Assembly: GCA_963718585.1 (NCBI GenBank) | Contig: OY970357.1 | Span: 90,001 to 122,000, forward strand | DNA from: Candidatus Saccharimonadota bacterium | GTDB taxonomy: Bacteria > Patescibacteriota > Patescibacteriia > 2-12-FULL-60-25 | DNA length: 32,000 bases | Reading direction: 5' to 3' | Shown here: positions 3,749 through 29,918 of the stretch, piece after piece | How the letters are laid out: the number at the start of each line of letters is the position of its first letter | Numbering within the stretch: position 1 is the first letter of the stretch | Program-made: the position numbers and the translations under genes | The notes under the pieces: model-generated | Seen by the model: only the letters and a program-made list of their open reading frames with translations | Databases searched by the model: none | What the model was told of the DNA's origin: nothing

Positions 3749-3817
<69 letters not shown>

Positions 3818-3835
<18 letters not shown>

Positions 3836-3914
3836 CATCAAAAAACCCCGACAGGGGTTTTTTGATGTGGAGAGACGAGAACGGGAAAGGGTGAAAACGG
3901 AAGTTTTCACATGC
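3818..3914 (+). repeat. 97-nt direct repeat, copy 1 (last 18 nt of tRNA-Leu + terminator + start of trailer core)
   Basis: Aligns ungapped with 3979-4075 with 4 mismatched positions. The period is 161 nt. Confidence 0.9.
3836..3867. terminator. Terminator hairpin directly abutting the tRNA-Leu CCA
   Basis: Perfect 14-bp stem CATCAAAAAACCCC-GACA-GGGGTTTTTTGATG. A/T runs inside the stem would let it work in both orientations. Confidence 0.7.
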
Positions 3915-3978
3915 GGAGGAAGGTCTGCGGAAACCCGAAGGTTTCCGCAAAGGCGCGCGAATGCGCGTCCGGTGAGAT

Positions 3979-4075
3979 GTCTCTCCCCGCCCACCACATC
4001 AAAAAACCCCGACAGGGGTTTTTGATTGTGGAGAGACGGGAACGGGAAAGGGTGAAAACGGAAGTTTTCACATGC
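3979..4075 (+). repeat. 97-nt direct repeat, copy 2 (orphan tRNA-Leu 3' fragment + terminator + trailer core)
   Basis: GTCTCTCCCCGCCCACCA (3979-3996) is identical to the tRNA-Leu 3' end. A near-identical terminator and the GGAGAGACGGGAACGGGAAAGGGTGAAAACGGAAGTTTTCAC segment follow. Confidence 0.9.
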
Positions 4076-4601: not shown

Positions 4602-6464
4602 TCATTTCCATCGCCAGCCGGAATTCGTATACCAGCTCATGAGGCCGCCGAGGCGATCCGCCGGAGAGCTGATCAAAAGATGGTCTTGTACGCCTTTGAT
4701 GCCGGTCGCGACGATCTCATGGTGCATGGGTCGGAGGAGGAAGACGGCTGGAACGTCGTTCAGGATCGCGGCGCTCGCAGTTTGGCGGGCTTCTATGATG
4801 GCGTCGGTCGTTGTCGCGTCGCGGGAGGCTTCAAGAGCATCGTCGACGGTACGGTCTACGAGCGACGAGAAGTTATATCCGCGGTCAATGGCCTGCCCGC
4901 TCCACCAGAAGGGGAAGAGGTCCTGTGTCGGGCCAAGATAGACATTCAATAGGATGATCTGACCGTCACGATCTCTCGTTGCCTTACGGAGGAGGTCCTC
5001 GGTCGACAGGGTCTCGATGTCGACCTTCGCGCCGATGAGCGACCATTGACGTTTCAGCCGATCCGCGACGGTCAGGAGATCCGGTTCGTCCGCGACCGAG
5101 ATCGTCAGGCTCAATTCCGTCGAACTGGCTGTCGCGATCGGCGCTGTGCTCGAAGATGAGGTGTCCTTCGCTCCGCTCTTCGCGATCCGGATGTTCCCAT
5201 TCTGCGGAAGGACCCATCCATCATTTTCCAAGAGCGTGCGCGCACGGTCGACGTCCATGCCGGTCGTCGTCGTGTCGAGGAATGGGTACGGCCCCATCAC
5301 CGGTGTCGCGCCGCCGCCAAGGGCGTCGACGAGGTCTGGGCGATCTACAGCAAGGGAAAGGGCCGTTCGGACGTCCTTGTCTTTGAGCGTGCCGTCTTTG
5401 AGATCGAAGAACGCGACCGTCTCTTCCGGCAGTTCGAGCTTGAGGTCATGTGCGCGCGATGCAGATTCGGCCTTTTGTGCATCTGCCGTCGGAACGAAGG
5501 CGGCGCCTTCGACGAGGTCGGCCTTGGCTGCGTCGACGGCGGATTGGCGATCCGGATAGAACTGGAAGACCACGGTCTTGAGATAGGGGGCGAATCCGTA
5601 ATACCGATCGAATCGTTCCAAGGTATAGGAATGGATGTTGCCGTTATTGTCACGCAGAAAGGATTTGACGTGATACGGCCCCGAACCGATGGGTTTGAGA
5701 TTGAGGTCAGAGACACGCGCGTTCGCGGCAGAGACATCCTCCCAGAGGTGCGCCGGCAGGATACCGAAGGTCAGGGAGGAGAGGATCTGCGCATCTGGTC
5801 GGTCCAGCGTGAAGATGACGGTGTCATCACCTTGTGTCGAGACGGTCACGCCATGGAATTCCGCGGCGAGCGGACTCTTCCGCGCAGGATCCATCAGGCT
5901 GTCGAACGTGAATCGGACATCATCGGCCGTCAGGAGCTGTCCGTCATGGAAATAGACGTCGGGTCGCAGGTGGATCGTCAGCGTCTTCCGGTCATCAGAC
6001 CACTCATACGATTGGGCGATGTCCGGGATCGGGTTCAGTCCATCCATCCGGAAGAGTCCGGAGTAGACCAGGCGGACCAGGTCGGCGTCCACGTCATTTG
6101 CCGGTGCGTCGAGCGGATTGATGAACTTCGGTTGTCCGATCAACGCTTCGCTATAGGCGCCTCCGACGACCGGAACGTTCACGATGTGCCCTTTGGCGAA
6201 GACGAACCCTGCGGTTCCGAGAGCGATGACCGCGATCAGACAGGCGATGACGAGAAGTCTTCGCTCTGATGGATCGAAGACGCGTAGGGCGTAGCGGAAT
6301 TGTCGATAGCGGGGGAGACGTTGTGGCTCCGTGACCGCGATGACGAGCGCGTGGTCATGCCCGACCTCCGGTGGGTGTTCCTCGTTCACCTCAGACGATG
6401 GCAGCCAAAAGAACACCCGTTGGAGCGTGCGTCGGATCCGGCTGATGAGAGTAGAGGGATTCAT
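4602..6464 (-). CDS. ABC-transporter family-5 (peptide/nickel type) substrate-binding protein, N-terminally membrane anchored
   Basis: 620 aa with one TM helix (LLVIACLIAVIALGTAGFVFA) followed by an SBP_bac_5-like body. No permease or ATPase genes are adjacent. Confidence 0.7.
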   Translation of the reverse strand: MNPSTLISRIRRTLQRVFFWLPSSEVNEEHPPEVGHDHALVIAVTEPQRLPRYRQFRYALRVFDPSERRLLVIACLIAVIALGTAGFVFAKGHIVNVPVVGGAYSEALIGQPKFINPLDAPANDVDADLVRLVYSGLFRMDGLNPIPDIAQSYEWSDDRKTLTIHLRPDVYFHDGQLLTADDVRFTFDSLMDPARKSPLAAEFHGVTVSTQGDDTVIFTLDRPDAQILSSLTFGILPAHLWEDVSAANARVSDLNLKPIGSGPYHVKSFLRDNNGNIHSYTLERFDRYYGFAPYLKTVVFQFYPDRQSAVDAAKADLVEGAAFVPTADAQKAESASRAHDLKLELPEETVAFFDLKDGTLKDKDVRTALSLAVDRPDLVDALGGGATPVMGPYPFLDTTTTGMDVDRARTLLENDGWVLPQNGNIRIAKSGAKDTSSSSTAPIATASSTELSLTISVADEPDLLTVADRLKRQWSLIGAKVDIETLSTEDLLRKATRDRDGQIILLNVYLGPTQDLFPFWWSGQAIDRGYNFSSLVDRTVDDALEASRDATTTDAIIEARQTASAAILNDVPAVFLLRPMHHEIVATGIKGVQDHLLISSPADRLGGLMSWYTNSGWRWK

Positions 6465-6526
6465 GGTCGCTGACCGTCCCGCATACGACCGGGGTCACCC
6501 GGCTCGCGATGCGGAGGAAACATCGG

Positions 6527-6748
6527 TCACGCCAGGAGCGCGTTCAGGAGTGCGGTCACGAAGAAGAGGACCGACAGACCGATGCTTGCGTAGTAGAGGC
6601 CTTTTTCGATGCCGCGCTTCGTCCGGAAGACGTCACTCGCGCCGCCAAAGGCCGCGCCAAGTCCGGAGCCGCGCTGCTGGAGCAGGATCGTGGTGATCAG
6701 GAGGATCGACACCAGGATCTGGATGCCGGCGAGCAAAAGGGTTCGCAT
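6527..6748 (-). CDS. secG: Preprotein translocase subunit SecG
   Basis: The 73-aa C-terminal part of ORF 6527..7141 starts at MRTLLLAGIQ. It has two TM helices flanking the LLQQRGSGLGAAFGG motif. The upstream part of the ORF is Arg-rich shadow sequence. Confidence 0.8.
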   Translation of the reverse strand: MRTLLLAGIQILVSILLITTILLQQRGSGLGAAFGGASDVFRTKRGIEKGLYYASIGLSVLFFVTALLNALLA

Positions 6749-14532: not shown

Positions 14533-16392
14533 ATGCCCCGTTCACGCACCGTCTCTGGGATCGTCTTTTCGTTCATGCCCGTGTTCGCGGTCATCGGATT
14601 TGCCGTTGCCGGTGTCGTTGCGTTGGTGGTCGGGCCAGCAACAGGCTCTATCGTGCTCGCGGTGGTGCTTGTCGTCGGGACGTTTCCGTATGCGTGGCGG
14701 ATCCTTTCGGACATGTTCCGCGGTCATTTGGGTGTGGATGTCATCGCGCTCCTCGCGATCGCTGGCGCGCTTGCATTTGACCAATGGATCGCCGGAGCCG
14801 TGATCCTTTTCATGCTTTCCGGTGGCGAGGCGCTTGAGGAATACGCCCTTCGTCGCGCCCGACGTCAGCTGACGCTCCTCCTATCGAACGCGCCTTCCAT
14901 TGCGCATGTTTCGCTGAAAGGAAAGTTGAAGGATGTCTCGGTCATGGAGGTGAAAGTCGGCGACGTGCTCGTCGTGAAGGCAGGAGAGACCGTTCCTGTC
15001 GACGCGATCATCGTCAAAGGGGTATCCGCGCTCGATGAGTCCCGTCTCACCGGCGAACCCCTCCCGGTCGAAAAAGGACCACACAGTCTCGTGATGAGCG
15101 GGAGTGTGAACATGGAGGCAGTGCTGACCGTGCAGGCCGTGCGGACCGCGGAACAAAGTCGATACGGGCAGATCATCCAGCTGGTCCGCGAGGCGGAAGA
15201 GAGTCGGGCGCCGATCATCCGCATCGCGGATCGCTACAGCGTCGGTTTTACCGCCGTGACCCTCGCGATCGCCGGTGGAGCGTGGTGGCTGTCCGGCGAT
15301 CCGATCCGCGCGTTGTCCGTCCTGGTGGTCGCCACGCCATGTCCGTTGATCGTCGCCACACCGGTCGCGATCATGTCCGGGATCAGTCGCGCGGCAAAAC
15401 GCGGGATCGTGGTCAAAGACGGCGGTGCGCTTGAGGTCTTGGGACGTGCGAAAGCATTCGTCCTCGATAAGACAGGGACGATCACGCTTGGAACGCCGAA
15501 GGTGGCCGGCGTGCTGCATGGTGAGGTGCCGGAAGGTGAGGTGTTGCGGATCGCCGCGTCCTTGGATCAACTTTCCAACCACGTTTTGGCGCGGTCCCTT
15601 GTGATGTACGCAAAGGAGCAGGGCGCGCATCTGGAGATCCCGTCGGATTTTCATGAAGAGATCGCATCGGGCGTGAGCGGGACGCTCGACGGGACGCCGT
15701 ATGCATTCGGCAAGCTCGCGTTCCTTGAAGCGCGCGGTGTGGTGATCCCGTCCGAAGTCAGGCGGACGCATGAAGAAGGTCGGAATGCCGGGACCAAATC
15801 CGTCTACCTCGCTACAGGAACGACATACGTCGGCGGCGTAAGCTTTTCGGACACGGTCCGTCCGCACATCAAGAGCATGTTCCACGAGATGGCGCGTCAT
15901 GGGGTCACGGAGGTGCTCATGCTGACGGGGGATAAGACGTCCGTGGCCATGGAGATCGCGCAAAAAGTCGGGATCAAGCAGTTCCGCGGAGATTGTCTGC
16001 CGGAGGATAAAGTGGCAGAGGTCAAGAAGTTGCAAAAGAGGGTATCTCCCGTCGCCATGGTGGGTGACGGGGTGAATGATGCACCGGCGCTGGCGGTCGC
16101 GGATGTCGGGATCGCGATGGGGGCGAACGGAGCGACCGCTGCATCGGAGACCGCAGACATCGTCATCACCGTAGATCAGTTCGAGCGCGTGGGCGAGGCG
16201 TATCACATCGCCCGGCGGATGCTCGCCATCGCGTTGGAGAGCATCTGGATCGGGATCGGCGTGAGCGTCCTTTTGATGGTCGTCGCGGCCTTTGGAGGGA
16301 TCCTGCCGATCCAGGGCGCGATCACGCAGGAGGTGCTCGACGTCGCCGTCATTTTGAATGCATTACGCGTCCACGGGACGCGGCTTGAGTGA
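14533..16392 (+). CDS. P1B-type heavy-metal-translocating ATPase lacking an N-terminal metal-binding domain
   Basis: DKTGTIT phosphorylation motif, GDGVNDAPAL hinge and transmembrane TPCPLIVATP (a PCP motif rather than CPC). The start was trimmed to the MPRSRTV ATG. Confidence 0.85.
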   Translation: MPRSRTVSGIVFSFMPVFAVIGFAVAGVVALVVGPATGSIVLAVVLVVGTFPYAWRILSDMFRGHLGVDVIALLAIAGALAFDQWIAGAVILFMLSGGEALEEYALRRARRQLTLLLSNAPSIAHVSLKGKLKDVSVMEVKVGDVLVVKAGETVPVDAIIVKGVSALDESRLTGEPLPVEKGPHSLVMSGSVNMEAVLTVQAVRTAEQSRYGQIIQLVREAEESRAPIIRIADRYSVGFTAVTLAIAGGAWWLSGDPIRALSVLVVATPCPLIVATPVAIMSGISRAAKRGIVVKDGGALEVLGRAKAFVLDKTGTITLGTPKVAGVLHGEVPEGEVLRIAASLDQLSNHVLARSLVMYAKEQGAHLEIPSDFHEEIASGVSGTLDGTPYAFGKLAFLEARGVVIPSEVRRTHEEGRNAGTKSVYLATGTTYVGGVSFSDTVRPHIKSMFHEMARHGVTEVLMLTGDKTSVAMEIAQKVGIKQFRGDCLPEDKVAEVKKLQKRVSPVAMVGDGVNDAPALAVADVGIAMGANGATAASETADIVITVDQFERVGEAYHIARRMLAIALESIWIGIGVSVLLMVVAAFGGILPIQGAITQEVLDVAVILNALRVHGTRLE

Positions 16393-18053: not shown

Positions 18054-18128
18054 TGGTAGGCCCGGCTGGGATCGAACCAGCGACCGGGTGTGTATAAGAC
18101 ACCTGCTCTACCACTGAGCTACGGGCCT
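18054..18128 (-). tRNA. tRNA-Ile with UAU anticodon (AUA decoder), CCA encoded
   Basis: AGGCCCG/TA/GCTC-AGTGGTA-GAGC/A/GGTGT-CTTATAC-ACACC/CGGTC/GCTGG-TTCGATC-CCAGC/CGGGCCT-A-CCA. All stems are Watson-Crick, and loop positions 34-36 read TAT. Confidence 0.85.
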
Positions 18129-27424: not shown

Positions 27425-27437
27425 TGGCGGGCGTGCC
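27425..27437 (-). repeat. Orphan tRNA-Ile(GAU) 3'-end-like fragment
   Basis: Minus strand GGCACGCCCGCCA versus the tRNA 3' end GGCACGCCCACCA (12/13 identical). It sits immediately before the terminator hairpin. Confidence 0.55.
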
Positions 27438-27444
27438 CCGCACG

Positions 27445-27511
27445 GCGTATTGCGCTGACCACCCATTCTCTGCCTGCGGCGGATCACTTGGGTCTGTGCG
27501 ACGCCTGCGCT
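27445..27511 (-). repeat. tRNA-leader element, copy D (orphan, not followed by an intact tRNA)
   Basis: The minus strand shares the 25-nt block CAGACCCAAGTGATCCGCCGCAGGC with copy B, plus GAATGGGTGGTC. Confidence 0.8.
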
Positions 27512-27566
27512 CAGTTTGCCGTACAAACTGGTAAACGAGCCGGAGGAAACCGTTCAGCTCATATGC

Positions 27567-27578
27567 GTTCGAGTCCAG
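27567..27578 (-). repeat. Inverted copy of the tRNA-Ile(GAU) T-loop/T-stem
   Basis: Plus strand GTTCGAGTCCAG is identical to the tRNA sense sequence although the tRNA is on the minus strand. It is therefore an inverted repeat, located just past the tRNA terminator. Confidence 0.7.
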
Positions 27579-27590
27579 ACACATATGAAA

Positions 27591-28684: not shown

Positions 28685-28696
28685 AATTCTATAAAA

Positions 28697-28709
28697 GCCA
28701 GGATCGAAC
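28697..28709 (+). repeat. Inverted copy of the tRNA-Phe T-loop/T-stem
   Basis: GCCAGGATCGAAC is the exact reverse complement of the tRNA-Phe segment GTTCGATCCTGGC. It lies 12 nt past the terminator. Confidence 0.7.
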
Positions 28710-28751
28710 GGAGCCTCTCTTCTCTCCCTAGACATTGTCCTCATTTTCTGC

Positions 28752-29267: not shown

Positions 29268-29290
29268 GCCCCGGTATCCCGGGGCTTTTT
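29268..29290 (+). terminator. Intrinsic terminator
   Basis: GCCCCGG-TATC-CCGGGGC followed by TTTTT. Confidence 0.7.
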
Positions 29291-29295
29291 CATAC

Positions 29296-29671
29296 GAAAA
29301 AGCACCGCGAGGGTGCTCTTTCACTTGGAGCGGGTAGCGGGAGATCTCCGTCGTCGCTTAGCTCCTCCCACGAAAACCTTCGGGTTTTCGTGTGCTTTCC
29401 TCAGAATGTGAAACCTTCCGGTTTCACCCTTCCCCGGTTCGACTCCCGCATCTGTCTGTTCAAATGAAAAAGCACCGCGAGGGTGCTCTTTCACTTGGAG
29501 CGGGTAGCGGGAGATCTCCCGCGGCCTTCGGCCTTCTGGGAACCCATCGGTTCCCAGCTCACTCCGTTCGCTCCCTCCGCCATGGGGAACTCCCGTTCCC
29601 CAACGCCCTTCCCGTTCGACTCATCCACCATCAGTCCAAAAACAAATAGACCCGTTGGGTCCACTTGTTTT
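29296..29671 (-). repeat. tRNA-Gly trailer array: two ~170-nt structured units, each ending in an orphan tRNA-Gly 3' fragment plus terminator
   Basis: Perfect 54-nt repeat at 29296-29349 and 29466-29519. The 19-nt TTGGAGCGGGTAGCGGGAG occurs three times (29325, 29495, 29671), the third being the real tRNA 3' end. Inverted T-arm copies lie at 29436-29449 (14/14) and 29613-29626 (partial). Confidence 0.9.
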
Positions 29672-29746
29672 TGGAGCGGGTAGCGGGAGTCGAACCCGCC
29701 TCTCAACCTTGGAAGGGTCGCATAATAGCCGCTATACGATACCCGC
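29672..29746 (-). tRNA. tRNA-Gly (anticodon UCC), CCA encoded
   Basis: GCGGGTA/TC/GTAT-AGCGGCTA-TTAT.../anticodon loop CTTCCAA/T-arm GCGGG-TTCGACT-CCCGC/TACCCGC-T-CCA. It closely resembles the E. coli tRNA-Gly(UCC) layout. Confidence 0.9.
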
Positions 29747-29760
29747 GAAAATGTGGCCGC

Positions 29761-29789
29761 ATCGTAGCGGAATCGGGTTCAGCTGACAA
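29761..29789 (-). promoter_or_regulatory. Promoter TTGTCA-N17-TACGAT for tRNA-Gly
   Basis: Exact 17-nt spacer on the minus strand. The -10 box ends 14 nt before the mature 5' end. Confidence 0.55.
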
Positions 29790-29798
29790 TCCTCCGTC

Positions 29799-29827
29799 TC
29801 GACAAGCGAAGAATCCTTCCTTATGAT
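29799..29827 (+). promoter_or_regulatory. Promoter TCGACA-N17-TATGAT for tRNA-Pro
   Basis: Exact 17-nt spacer. The -10 box ends 14 nt before the mature 5' end. It is divergent from the tRNA-Gly promoter. Confidence 0.55.
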
Positions 29828-29841
29828 GCGTGCGCTGCCCT

Positions 29842-29918
29842 CGGGCTGTAGCGCAGTTGGCTAGCGCACCTGCTTTGGGAGCAGGGGGTCGTGGGTTCGA
29901 GTCCCACCAGCCCGACCA
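29842..29918 (+). tRNA. tRNA-Pro (anticodon UGG), CCA encoded
   Basis: CGGGCTG/TA/GCGC-AGTTGGCTA-GCGC/A/CCTGC-TTTGGGA-GCAGG/GGGTC/GTGGG-TTCGAGT-CCCAC/CAGCCCG-A-CCA. Confidence 0.92.

Follow-up and report, generated by a model that had tools for sequence, protein, structure and literature searches.

Why should the 3' end of a transfer RNA (tRNA) gene occur twice more behind the intact gene, each time followed by a terminator-like hairpin? This question is raised by a tRNA-Gly locus in a stretch of 32,000 nucleotides (nt) of Candidatus Saccharimonadota bacterium DNA (assembly GCA_963718585.1, contig OY970357.1, positions 90,001 to 122,000), which is referred to below as the window. As judged from the sequences compared here, the tRNA-Gly array is one locus of a multi-copy, previously undescribed family of tRNA-tethered three-hairpin modules, with further copies behind tRNA-Leu and tRNA-Arg genes and behind the tRNA-Gly gene of a distant metagenome-assembled genome (MAG). 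We put at roughly 45% the probability that these modules represent a duplicative miniature element without genes or a small-RNA gene, in either case aimed at tRNA genes, with flanks derived from the target and a breakpoint in the T-loop between positions 58 and 59 (58|59).

Anatomy of the tRNA-Gly array

The array begins with a tRNA-Gly(UCC) gene (29672-29746; this and all further features of the array lie on the minus strand), which encodes its CCA, carries the T-loop TTCGACT and scored 54.6 bits against the Rfam tRNA model. tRNA genes were called with ARAGORN and Rfam, and Rfam 15 covariance models were used for RNA families. As queries for copies inside the window, the T-arm and the 3'-terminal 18 nt of each tRNA were used. 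Positions 59-76 of tRNA-Gly read CTCCCGCTACCCGCTCCA. The initial annotation of this locus had described a 19-mer present three times, a perfect 54-nt repeat around both orphan 3' ends, one exact and one partial inverted T-arm, a terminator after the orphan ends that differs from the hairpin after the real tRNA, two cores alike in layout but not in sequence, and open reading frames (ORFs) that merely translate the array; all of these points were borne out. The 19-mer TTGGAGCGGGTAGCGGGAG matched exactly at 29325, 29495 and 29671, with 0 matches in 100 shuffles. The perfect 54-nt repeat (29296-29349 and 29466-29519) lies within a 61-nt repeat of 97% identity (29289-29349 and 29459-29519). The hairpin 3' of the real tRNA, T1 (29635-29675; inverted repeat I3 and terminator scan), is A/T-flanked, resembles a bidirectional terminator and overlaps the last 4 nt of tRNA-Gly. 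It is unlike T2, the hairpin AGCACC-CTCGC-GGTGCT+TTTTC, which was found by the repeat and terminator scans after both orphan ends (29466-29487 and 29296-29317). The ORFs across the array had neither a family match nor a homologue.

Two units were resolved behind T1. Unit B opens with the 5' motif GATGAGTCGAAC (29614-29625), a degenerate inverted copy of the T-loop and T-stem, in which the inverted T-arm is reduced to GAGTCGAAC plus a degenerate stem. Its core GGGAAGGG (29519-29613), recognized by its fold, by nhmmer (E=8e-15) and by pair counts, contains hairpin 1 (hp1; 29584-29601, loop GGGA), a purine linker (29558-29583), hp2 (29536-29557) and hp3 (29523-29533). The junction (29496-29518) consists of GAGAT (29514-29518) and an exact copy of tRNA-Gly 59-76, after which the first copy of T2 follows. 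Unit A opens with GCGGGAGTCGAACC (29436-29449; inverted repeat I6), an exact 14-nt inverted copy of tRNA-Gly 52-65 whose source lies at 29683-29696. In the minimum free energy (MFE) fold, this motif is predicted to pair with positions 59-65 of the unit's own tail and thereby to form a closing stem. The core GGGGAAGG (29349-29435; fold and nhmmer, E=1e-18) comprises hp1 (29408-29427, loop GGAA), a linker with GAGGAAAG (29393-29407), hp2 (29369-29392, loop CGAA) and a weak hp3, and the junction (29326-29348) again joins GAGAT (29344-29348) to an exact copy of tRNA-Gly 59-76. The two cores share a common hairpin layout at 58% identity.

Some further observations concern this locus. The junction GAGAT|CTCCC creates the palindromes GGGAGATCTCCC in unit B (29507-29518) and GGAGATCTCC in unit A (29339-29348), both with AGATCT, and the corresponding junction GAGAUGUCUC of a unit behind tRNA-Leu is self-complementary only if G-U pairs are allowed. 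The tRNA-Gly and tRNA-Pro(UGG) genes are divergent in the window (29672-29918), whereas they stand in tandem on one strand in L003 (the distant MAG) and in the relatives L019 and L024; the array locus has therefore been locally rearranged. In L024, tRNA-Ile and tRNA-Gly converge on a single common terminator. The tRNA-Gly gene of the window is identical to that of L003 (6951-7025) at 74/75 positions, and to those of the closer relatives L024 (14988-15062) and L019 (18633-18707) at 72/75 and 71/75 positions, respectively. C59 and the D-loop AGCGGC are common to the tRNA-Gly genes of the window and L003. The tRNA-Gly gene and its units may travel together.

A module family behind several tRNA genes

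A core profile (nhmmer) and a hairpin descriptor were run over 287 kb of DNA, which comprised the window and the retrieved contigs. The profile search returned 4 full and 2 partial copies, namely Gly A, Gly B, Leu 1, Leu 2, Arg and the tRNA-Gly unit of L003, and neither search gave any copy beyond these. All of these copies lie 33-50 nt past a tRNA CCA and are oriented as the tRNA. The tail agrees with the neighbouring tRNA at 18/18 positions in 4/4 complete units, which come from two genomes and stand at two tRNA species, and the junction is always GAGAT|N59.

The second locus in the window lies on the plus strand (3749-3867), where tRNA-Leu(CAG) (3749-3835) and its own terminator (3836-3867) are followed by Leu unit 1 (3869-3996; nhmmer E=3.5e-20). 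This unit is made up of the inverted Leu T-arm GGAGAGACGAGAAC (3869-3882), hp1 (3891-3910), the linker GGAGGAAGG, hp2 (3927-3948), hp3 (3953-3968) and a junction of GAGAT with the exact tRNA-Leu 59-76 sequence GTCTCTCCCCGCCCACCA (3974-3996). A copy of the Leu terminator (3997-4028) and a shortened Leu unit 2 (5' motif 4030-4043, hp1 4052-4071) complete the locus (3997-4075; nhmmer E=1.4e-4). The Leu array (3869-4075) thus holds 1.4 copies with a 161-nt period and the breakpoint 58|59. A third locus (6448-6609) was found on L001, a same-species k-mer contig that extends ~4.5 kb to the right of the window; there, tRNA-Arg(UCG) and its own terminator are followed by GAAGGAGTCGAAC GGGAAAGGGTGAAAACGGGAGTTTTCACAT until the contig stops inside hp1 of the unit. 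Over the 30 nt available, the Arg core differs from the Leu core by 1 nt, whereas the 5' motif is of the Arg type: GAAGGAG fits the complement of U64 and not the sense stem GGGGG. The Leu and Arg loci differ entirely in their ends and intervening terminators, each of which is specific to its locus. The repeated element therefore excludes the terminator that separates tRNA and unit, and the near-identical cores with different cognate ends indicated that the flanks come from the target and not from the element.

The module measures ~125 nt, or 161-176 nt including the terminator. In the tRNA direction, its order is an inverted copy of tRNA positions 53-65, GRAAGGG, hp1, a purine stretch, hp2, hp3, GAGAT, the copy of 59-76 and the terminator. 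The inverted 5' motif covers approximately positions 53-65/66 of the adjacent tRNA (52-65 in unit A). hp1 has 7-8 bp and a GGAA or GGGA loop, hp2 has 9-10 bp and hp3 is small; the purine stretch between hp1 and hp2 holds GAGGAAG or GGAGGGAG. Identity with the tRNA begins two bases before the end of the T-loop, of which positions 54-58 (TTCGA) are replaced by GAGAT. The MFE folds of units A, Leu 1 and L003 were the same, with a closing stem formed by the 5' motif and tail positions 59-65, three hairpins and a predicted 11-nt 3' overhang that corresponds to the acceptor 3' strand plus NCCA.

The Gly units (~170 nt) folded better than shuffled sequences, with z-scores of -3.6 to -4.4 on either strand. 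In whole-unit MAFFT alignments, the hairpins were out of register, and RNAalifold therefore under-reports the structure; because of this loss of register, hairpin-only alignments were used for pair counting, in which the 3-nt loop of the L003 hp2 was padded with one N to hold the register. Across hp1 and hp2 of the four complete units, 68/68 stem cells were standard Watson-Crick pairs. Changes on both sides were seen in 10/17 stem pairs, changes on one side only in 0, and G-U pairs in 0. This pairing was matched by 0/500 shuffles and by no slid register. Both hairpins of unit B read GGGAAC in place of the GAAAAC or GAAACC of the other units, a pattern suggestive of concerted change within unit B. 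On the tRNA-sense strand, purines make up 76-80% of the unpaired segments in each of the four complete units, and the GC content of the units tracks that of the host in both genomes. No RNA family of Rfam 15 matched the units: only six tRNAs passed, and the sub-threshold matches were hairpin noise. Likewise, blastn matched the Leu unit to no phage and the Gly units to no plasmid, the exact hp1 pattern had 0 matches in viral contigs, and nothing scored when concatenated six-frame translations of the units were compared with a protein database, as a search for spurious ORFs in other genomes.

Other genomes were scanned for units with the Gly-tail-specific pattern GATCTCCCGCTACCCGCTCCA, using one genome per species. 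The one true match was L003, a distant Patescibacteria MAG with 46% GC, in which tRNA-Pro, tRNA-Gly, the unit and tRNA-His lie on one strand, so that the unit is inside a tRNA operon. Its order is GAGTCGGAC, AAAGGGG, hp1, AGAGGAAG, hp2, hp3, GAGAT and an exact tail, with, on its 3' side, a second and partly deleted version of the hairpin that lies downstream of the tRNA itself. Two genomes of 59% and 46% GC have thus kept the architecture and the motifs GRAAGGG, GAGGAAG and GAGAT in common. Closer relatives were obtained through H+-PPase homologues of 82-85% identity and comprised L017/L018, L019-L021 (GCA_001791275), L023 and L024 (GCA_041643075). In these four relatives, the sites are empty: units are absent at tRNA-Gly, Leu, Ile, Phe and Arg, where the tRNA and its terminator stand alone. 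The distribution is patchy, since four relatives at 82-85% lack units while a 46%-GC MAG has one. A gapped pattern for metagenomes, AGTCGRAC...GAGATYTCCCGC...CCA, gave 10 loci, all chance matches in coding genes, and the matches in two viral contigs were likewise due to chance.

The same-species DNA read comprised the window and ~5 kb more of a 1.08-Mb genome, and the evidence as a whole comes from a narrow base of 6-7 unit copies in two genomes. Logan k-mer contigs of the same species (run ERR11571143) end at or beside tRNA/unit repeats: L025 starts within the Leu terminator, L022 stops within tRNA-Ile, and L001 runs from tRNA-Pro into the Arg unit. Through these contigs, the junction at the Leu terminator, the Ile region and the first part of the Arg unit are independently confirmed, and their ends indicated that short-read assemblies will fragment at such loci. 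No independent assembly of the Gly array was obtained from the ERR11571143 k-mer contigs, which break at its repeats. Collapse or expansion of the Gly array by mis-assembly is unlikely because no exact repeat in it exceeds 54 nt, a length below that of a typical read, and its cores differ.

These results bear on the broader claims of the initial annotation. It had suspected structural constraint, with which the fold scores and the double compensatory changes that keep the hairpins agree, and it had doubted a recent simple duplication, a doubt now strengthened by the core of unit A, which is nearer to Leu unit 1 (73%) than to unit B (58%). For the same reason, the Gly array does not represent local divergence. 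It had missed that the array is not specific to tRNA-Gly: related loci, whose two ends copy the adjacent tRNA in each case, lie behind tRNA-Leu, tRNA-Arg and the tRNA-Gly of a distant MAG. A lineage-specific accident absent from all related genomes, which it had named as a refutation, is largely excluded by the homologous unit of L003, though four closer relatives have none.

Several other loci in the window resemble parts of a unit. The tRNA-Ile(GAU) region (27425-27582, minus strand) has an inverted Ile T-arm (27566-27582) and a degenerate tail GCACGCCCGCCA (27425-27436). Its core is unrelated to the family and is not significantly structured (z=-0.09); it was rejected as a member, as the frame alone is alike. 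A solo inverted T-arm stub lies behind tRNA-Phe and its terminator (28696-28710, plus strand), and similar solo stubs follow tRNA-His in L003 and tRNA-Pro(CGG) in L023. The window also carries a tRNA-Ile with the anticodon UAU (18054-18128, minus strand), an unusual isoacceptor; since L023 and L024 carry it too, it is a clade feature. The neighbouring genes include H+-PPase, RNase J, UvrA and RluD, and the chromosome, on a contig of 1.08 Mb, is that of Patescibacteria and resembles Candidatus Uhrbacteria.

Origin of the modules and rival explanations

According to the reading that we prefer, the family's own sequence would be the core alone, a purine-rich segment of ~95 nt with three perfect hairpins and a GAGAT end. 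Flanks generated from the target would call for a break or nick between 58 and 59, a T-loop site common to all tRNA genes, at which the core would be joined. The left flank would be taken from the target as a short inverted copy of tRNA positions 53-65, and the right flank as a direct duplication from position 59 through the terminator (18 nt plus trailer). A copy of the terminator that belongs to the local tRNA follows the tail in both cases that can be judged (Leu and L003). The tRNA would stay intact because its last 18 nt and trailer are duplicated. Tandem arrays could arise by repeated events or by unequal exchange between duplicated tails, and recombination between tails could remove units cleanly. 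The module would be read in the tRNA direction, and its RNA would fold as a closing stem with three hairpins and an 11-nt 3' overhang. The purine-rich unpaired segments, the GNRA loops of hp1 and the Pro-Gly-unit-His operon of L003 suggested that the functional form is single-stranded and of the sense strand. A discrete RNA of ~170 nt ending in CCA is plausible, considering the shared orientation with the tRNA, the operon location in L003 and the purine-rich sense linkers.

Several points weigh against this proposal. The search of the 32-kb window for mobile genes found no transposase, integrase or other recombinase, and no reverse transcriptase, nuclease, HUH protein or Cas1, and no promoter-like site was found inside the units. 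We know of no mechanism that gives a direct and an inverted target duplication of this kind. In the Gly array, T1 differs from T2, which misfits a simple duplication of tail and terminator. No polymorphism of empty and filled sites was seen within the species, and units are known from two genomes alone, given a scan specific to the Gly tail and metagenome matches that arose by chance. Finally, the agreement of unit GC with host GC implies long-term residence, which would fit a host RNA gene equally well.

Such a host gene family is a serious, though less likely, alternative. It would consist of small RNAs, one per tRNA, built on a three-hairpin scaffold with an antisense T-arm segment and a 3' segment of 18 nt; selection would keep the ends, and gene conversion between loci would homogenise the cores. 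Possible roles include a mimic of the tRNA 3' half or 3' end, a decoy or sponge for 3'-end enzymes, an external-guide-like partner of the 5' acceptor strand and a regulator of pre-tRNA folding. This alternative accounts well for an architecture and single-stranded motifs that are kept between 59%-GC and 46%-GC genomes while the composition matches each host, and for stems that stay perfect through compensatory changes. Linkers that are purine-rich on the tRNA-sense strand only, GNRA loops in hp1, a sense-strand terminator after each unit, a unit within the tRNA operon of L003, and tails that are perfect while the 5' motifs carry mismatches also favour it. It fits less well with the four closer relatives that have no units at the same tRNAs, with tandem and shortened copies (Leu unit 2, Phe stub) that resemble the decay of repeat elements, with the complete absence of G-U pairs from the stems, which is unusual for a selected RNA, and with an equally good fold of both strands; the origin of new cognate end pairs is left unexplained. 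The small-RNA and mobile-element readings are compatible, as a selfish module may act through its RNA. On a further, unlikely reading, the units would be genes for a new class of tRNA-cognate RNA whose scaffold bears two segments derived from the target, of which the first is antisense to the T-arm (53-65) and the second identical to 59-76. At the T-loop, this RNA would pair with both strands of its own tRNA gene and guide a putative enzyme that would cut at 58|59 and place a copy of the module beside that gene. Different cognate ends on near-identical cores would follow if each new target served to rewrite the guides. Or else the RNA might serve as a surrogate 3' part or an external guide for damaged or immature tRNA.

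It is more doubtful that the units are ordinary tyrosine-integrase scars, left by repeated integration at the tRNA-Gly 3' end (tandem accretion) and later loss of most of the element DNA. Integrating elements typically regenerate the tRNA and leave a displaced 3' fragment, according to the Islander report (PMC4383910). The tRNA-Gly tail is really used in this manner: in the viral contig L016 (11461-12863; IMG/VR UViG_3300048920_000234), GTTCAACTCCCGCTACCCGCTCCA lies 12 nt from the end of a PF00589 integrase gene, and this attachment (att) site is of the attP type, with tRNA-Gly 53-76 (one mismatch) beside a tyrosine integrase of 455 amino acids. A displaced piece of tRNA-Gly (53-76) is likewise seen in the relative L023 (~14636-14857), where it lies inverted past the terminator of tRNA-Phe and abuts foreign AT-rich DNA up to the contig end; this looks like a conventional element integrated in the relative's tRNA-Gly. 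These true att fragments, however, begin at G53 and not at 59, lack the module and are single-target. The units have no integrase or cargo, and the 150-160 nt between their repeats form a conserved structured module and not a random remnant. The same module and GAGAT|59 junction occur at Leu, Arg and Gly, which is beyond the specificity of one integrase; the DNA 3' of the intact tRNA should be element-borne, yet it is locus-specific despite near-identical cores; and an inverted T-arm copy is foreign to att scars. A lineage-specific accident or artefact, in which a tRNA 3' end and its trailer were duplicated in tandem and then drifted, or were mis-assembled, is very improbable. Leu units 1 and 2 are indeed near-identical in tandem with a 161-nt period, the exact 54-nt repeat shows recent exchange between units of the Gly array, and that array lacks an independent assembly. 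But a homologous unit is present in an unrelated MAG, units stand at three different tRNAs, the stems show compensatory substitutions and no decay, unit A is nearer to Leu than to B, the k-mer contigs reproduce the flanks and break exactly at the repeats, and no exact repeat is as long as a read. Drift and artefact are largely refuted by the unit of L003 and by those at Leu and Arg.

Other candidates were considered and rejected. A small ORF is open in the sense frame, but its peptides are not conserved while the stems covary. A minihelix or aminoacylatable tRNA-like RNA would need a partner for the acceptor 3' strand, with which nothing pairs. The order of core sites is wrong for an integron attC site, and a group I, group II or bulge-helix-bulge intron at 58/59 was dismissed because of wrong boundary nucleotides, the absence of a bulge-helix-bulge and the small size. 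An element of the long terminal repeat (LTR) type with a primer binding site (PBS) would agree with a tail of 18 nt that has PBS length and stops at A58; however, A58 is included in the inverted copy, and neither LTRs nor a reverse transcriptase are present. A convergent tRNA remnant fails because it is the upstream tRNA to which the inverted motif is cognate, and because the motif has no acceptor or CCA, although relatives do show a tRNA-Ile and a tRNA-Gly facing each other across a terminator. Hybrid att sites with GAT/ATC arms fit the Gly units and fail at Leu and Arg.

If the family is real across Patescibacteria, it would represent a new way for small DNA or RNA modules to exploit tRNA genes, in which both flanks are taken from the target, the T-loop breakpoint is fixed and exactly the last 18 nt are duplicated. 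It would bring a further class of repeats to genomes regarded as poor in mobile DNA, account for assembly breaks and spurious ORFs beside tRNA genes in MAGs of the candidate phyla radiation, and point to an enzyme able to recognise the T-arm as DNA or RNA. Should the sense RNA be made, it would be a natural RNA that bears the single-stranded 3' end of a tRNA on a non-tRNA scaffold, with a bearing on 3'-end processing, CCA surveillance, RNase P guidance and tRNA repair.

Comparison with known systems

The modules share several features with the att scars of tyrosine-integrase islands and prophages, for which tandem accretion and cis-mobilizable remnants are described (the CIME concept of the ICESt1 literature). 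In both, an intact tRNA is followed by direct repeats of its 3' end (three at Gly and two at Leu, of 18-19 nt), the tRNA is preserved by duplication, arrays are possible, and recombination between repeats deletes the insert. Unlike att scars, the modules have a conserved 95-nt hairpin core, no integrase or cargo in the window, a fixed GAGAT and 58|59 junction at several tRNAs, an inverted T-arm copy at the other end, and a sequence beside the tRNA that is not element-borne. They therefore lack three defining features of att scars, namely an integrase or cargo, shared DNA 3' of the tRNA and specificity for a single tRNA.

Two RNA-based systems offer analogies. In the omega RNAs or reRNAs of TnpB and IscB and in the bridge RNAs of IS110, ends that match a DNA target stand beside a conserved scaffold. 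The modules would likewise combine a scaffold with target-matching segments, and the 18-nt 3' segment next to the T-loop TTCGA could be likened to a guide next to a target-adjacent motif, while two segments matching opposite strands of one site recall a bridge-RNA loop. In contrast to these systems, no TnpB, IscB or DEDD recombinase gene is present in the window, Rfam matches none of the units, the two segments are complementary to one another, and the gene that the guide would match is the neighbouring one. tRNA-like RNAs and external guide sequences (EGS) for RNase P, such as tmRNA, YrlA and three-quarter-tRNA EGS, are comparable in their 3' end, which in the modules would consist of the T-stem strand, the acceptor 3' strand and NCCA, and in the predicted cloverleaf-like fold. 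The modules differ from tRNA and tmRNA in that the core replaces T-loop positions 54-58, the 5' acceptor strand is absent and the loops are tetraloops instead of 7-nt loops; accordingly, ARAGORN and Rfam did not recognise the units as tRNA or tmRNA.

Miniature bacterial repeats include miniature inverted-repeat transposable elements (MITEs) and the REP/BIME/REPIN, Correia and RPE families. Like MITE- and REPIN-type elements, the modules are 100-170 nt long, gene-less, multi-copy, hairpin-rich and extragenic, with near-identical distant copies as well as tandem and shortened ones. Unlike them, the modules occur behind tRNA genes only and in the tRNA orientation only, and no RAYT or transposase was seen. 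They carry no element-borne terminal inverted repeats, as the sole inverted repeat (7-8 bp) is tRNA-derived and varies with the tRNA; instead of a short target-site duplication, there is a direct duplication of 50-65 nt (59-76 plus terminator) and an inverted one of 13 nt. The family thus belongs to neither the tRNA-integrating elements nor the miniature repeats as they are defined, and these two are functionally its closest known systems.

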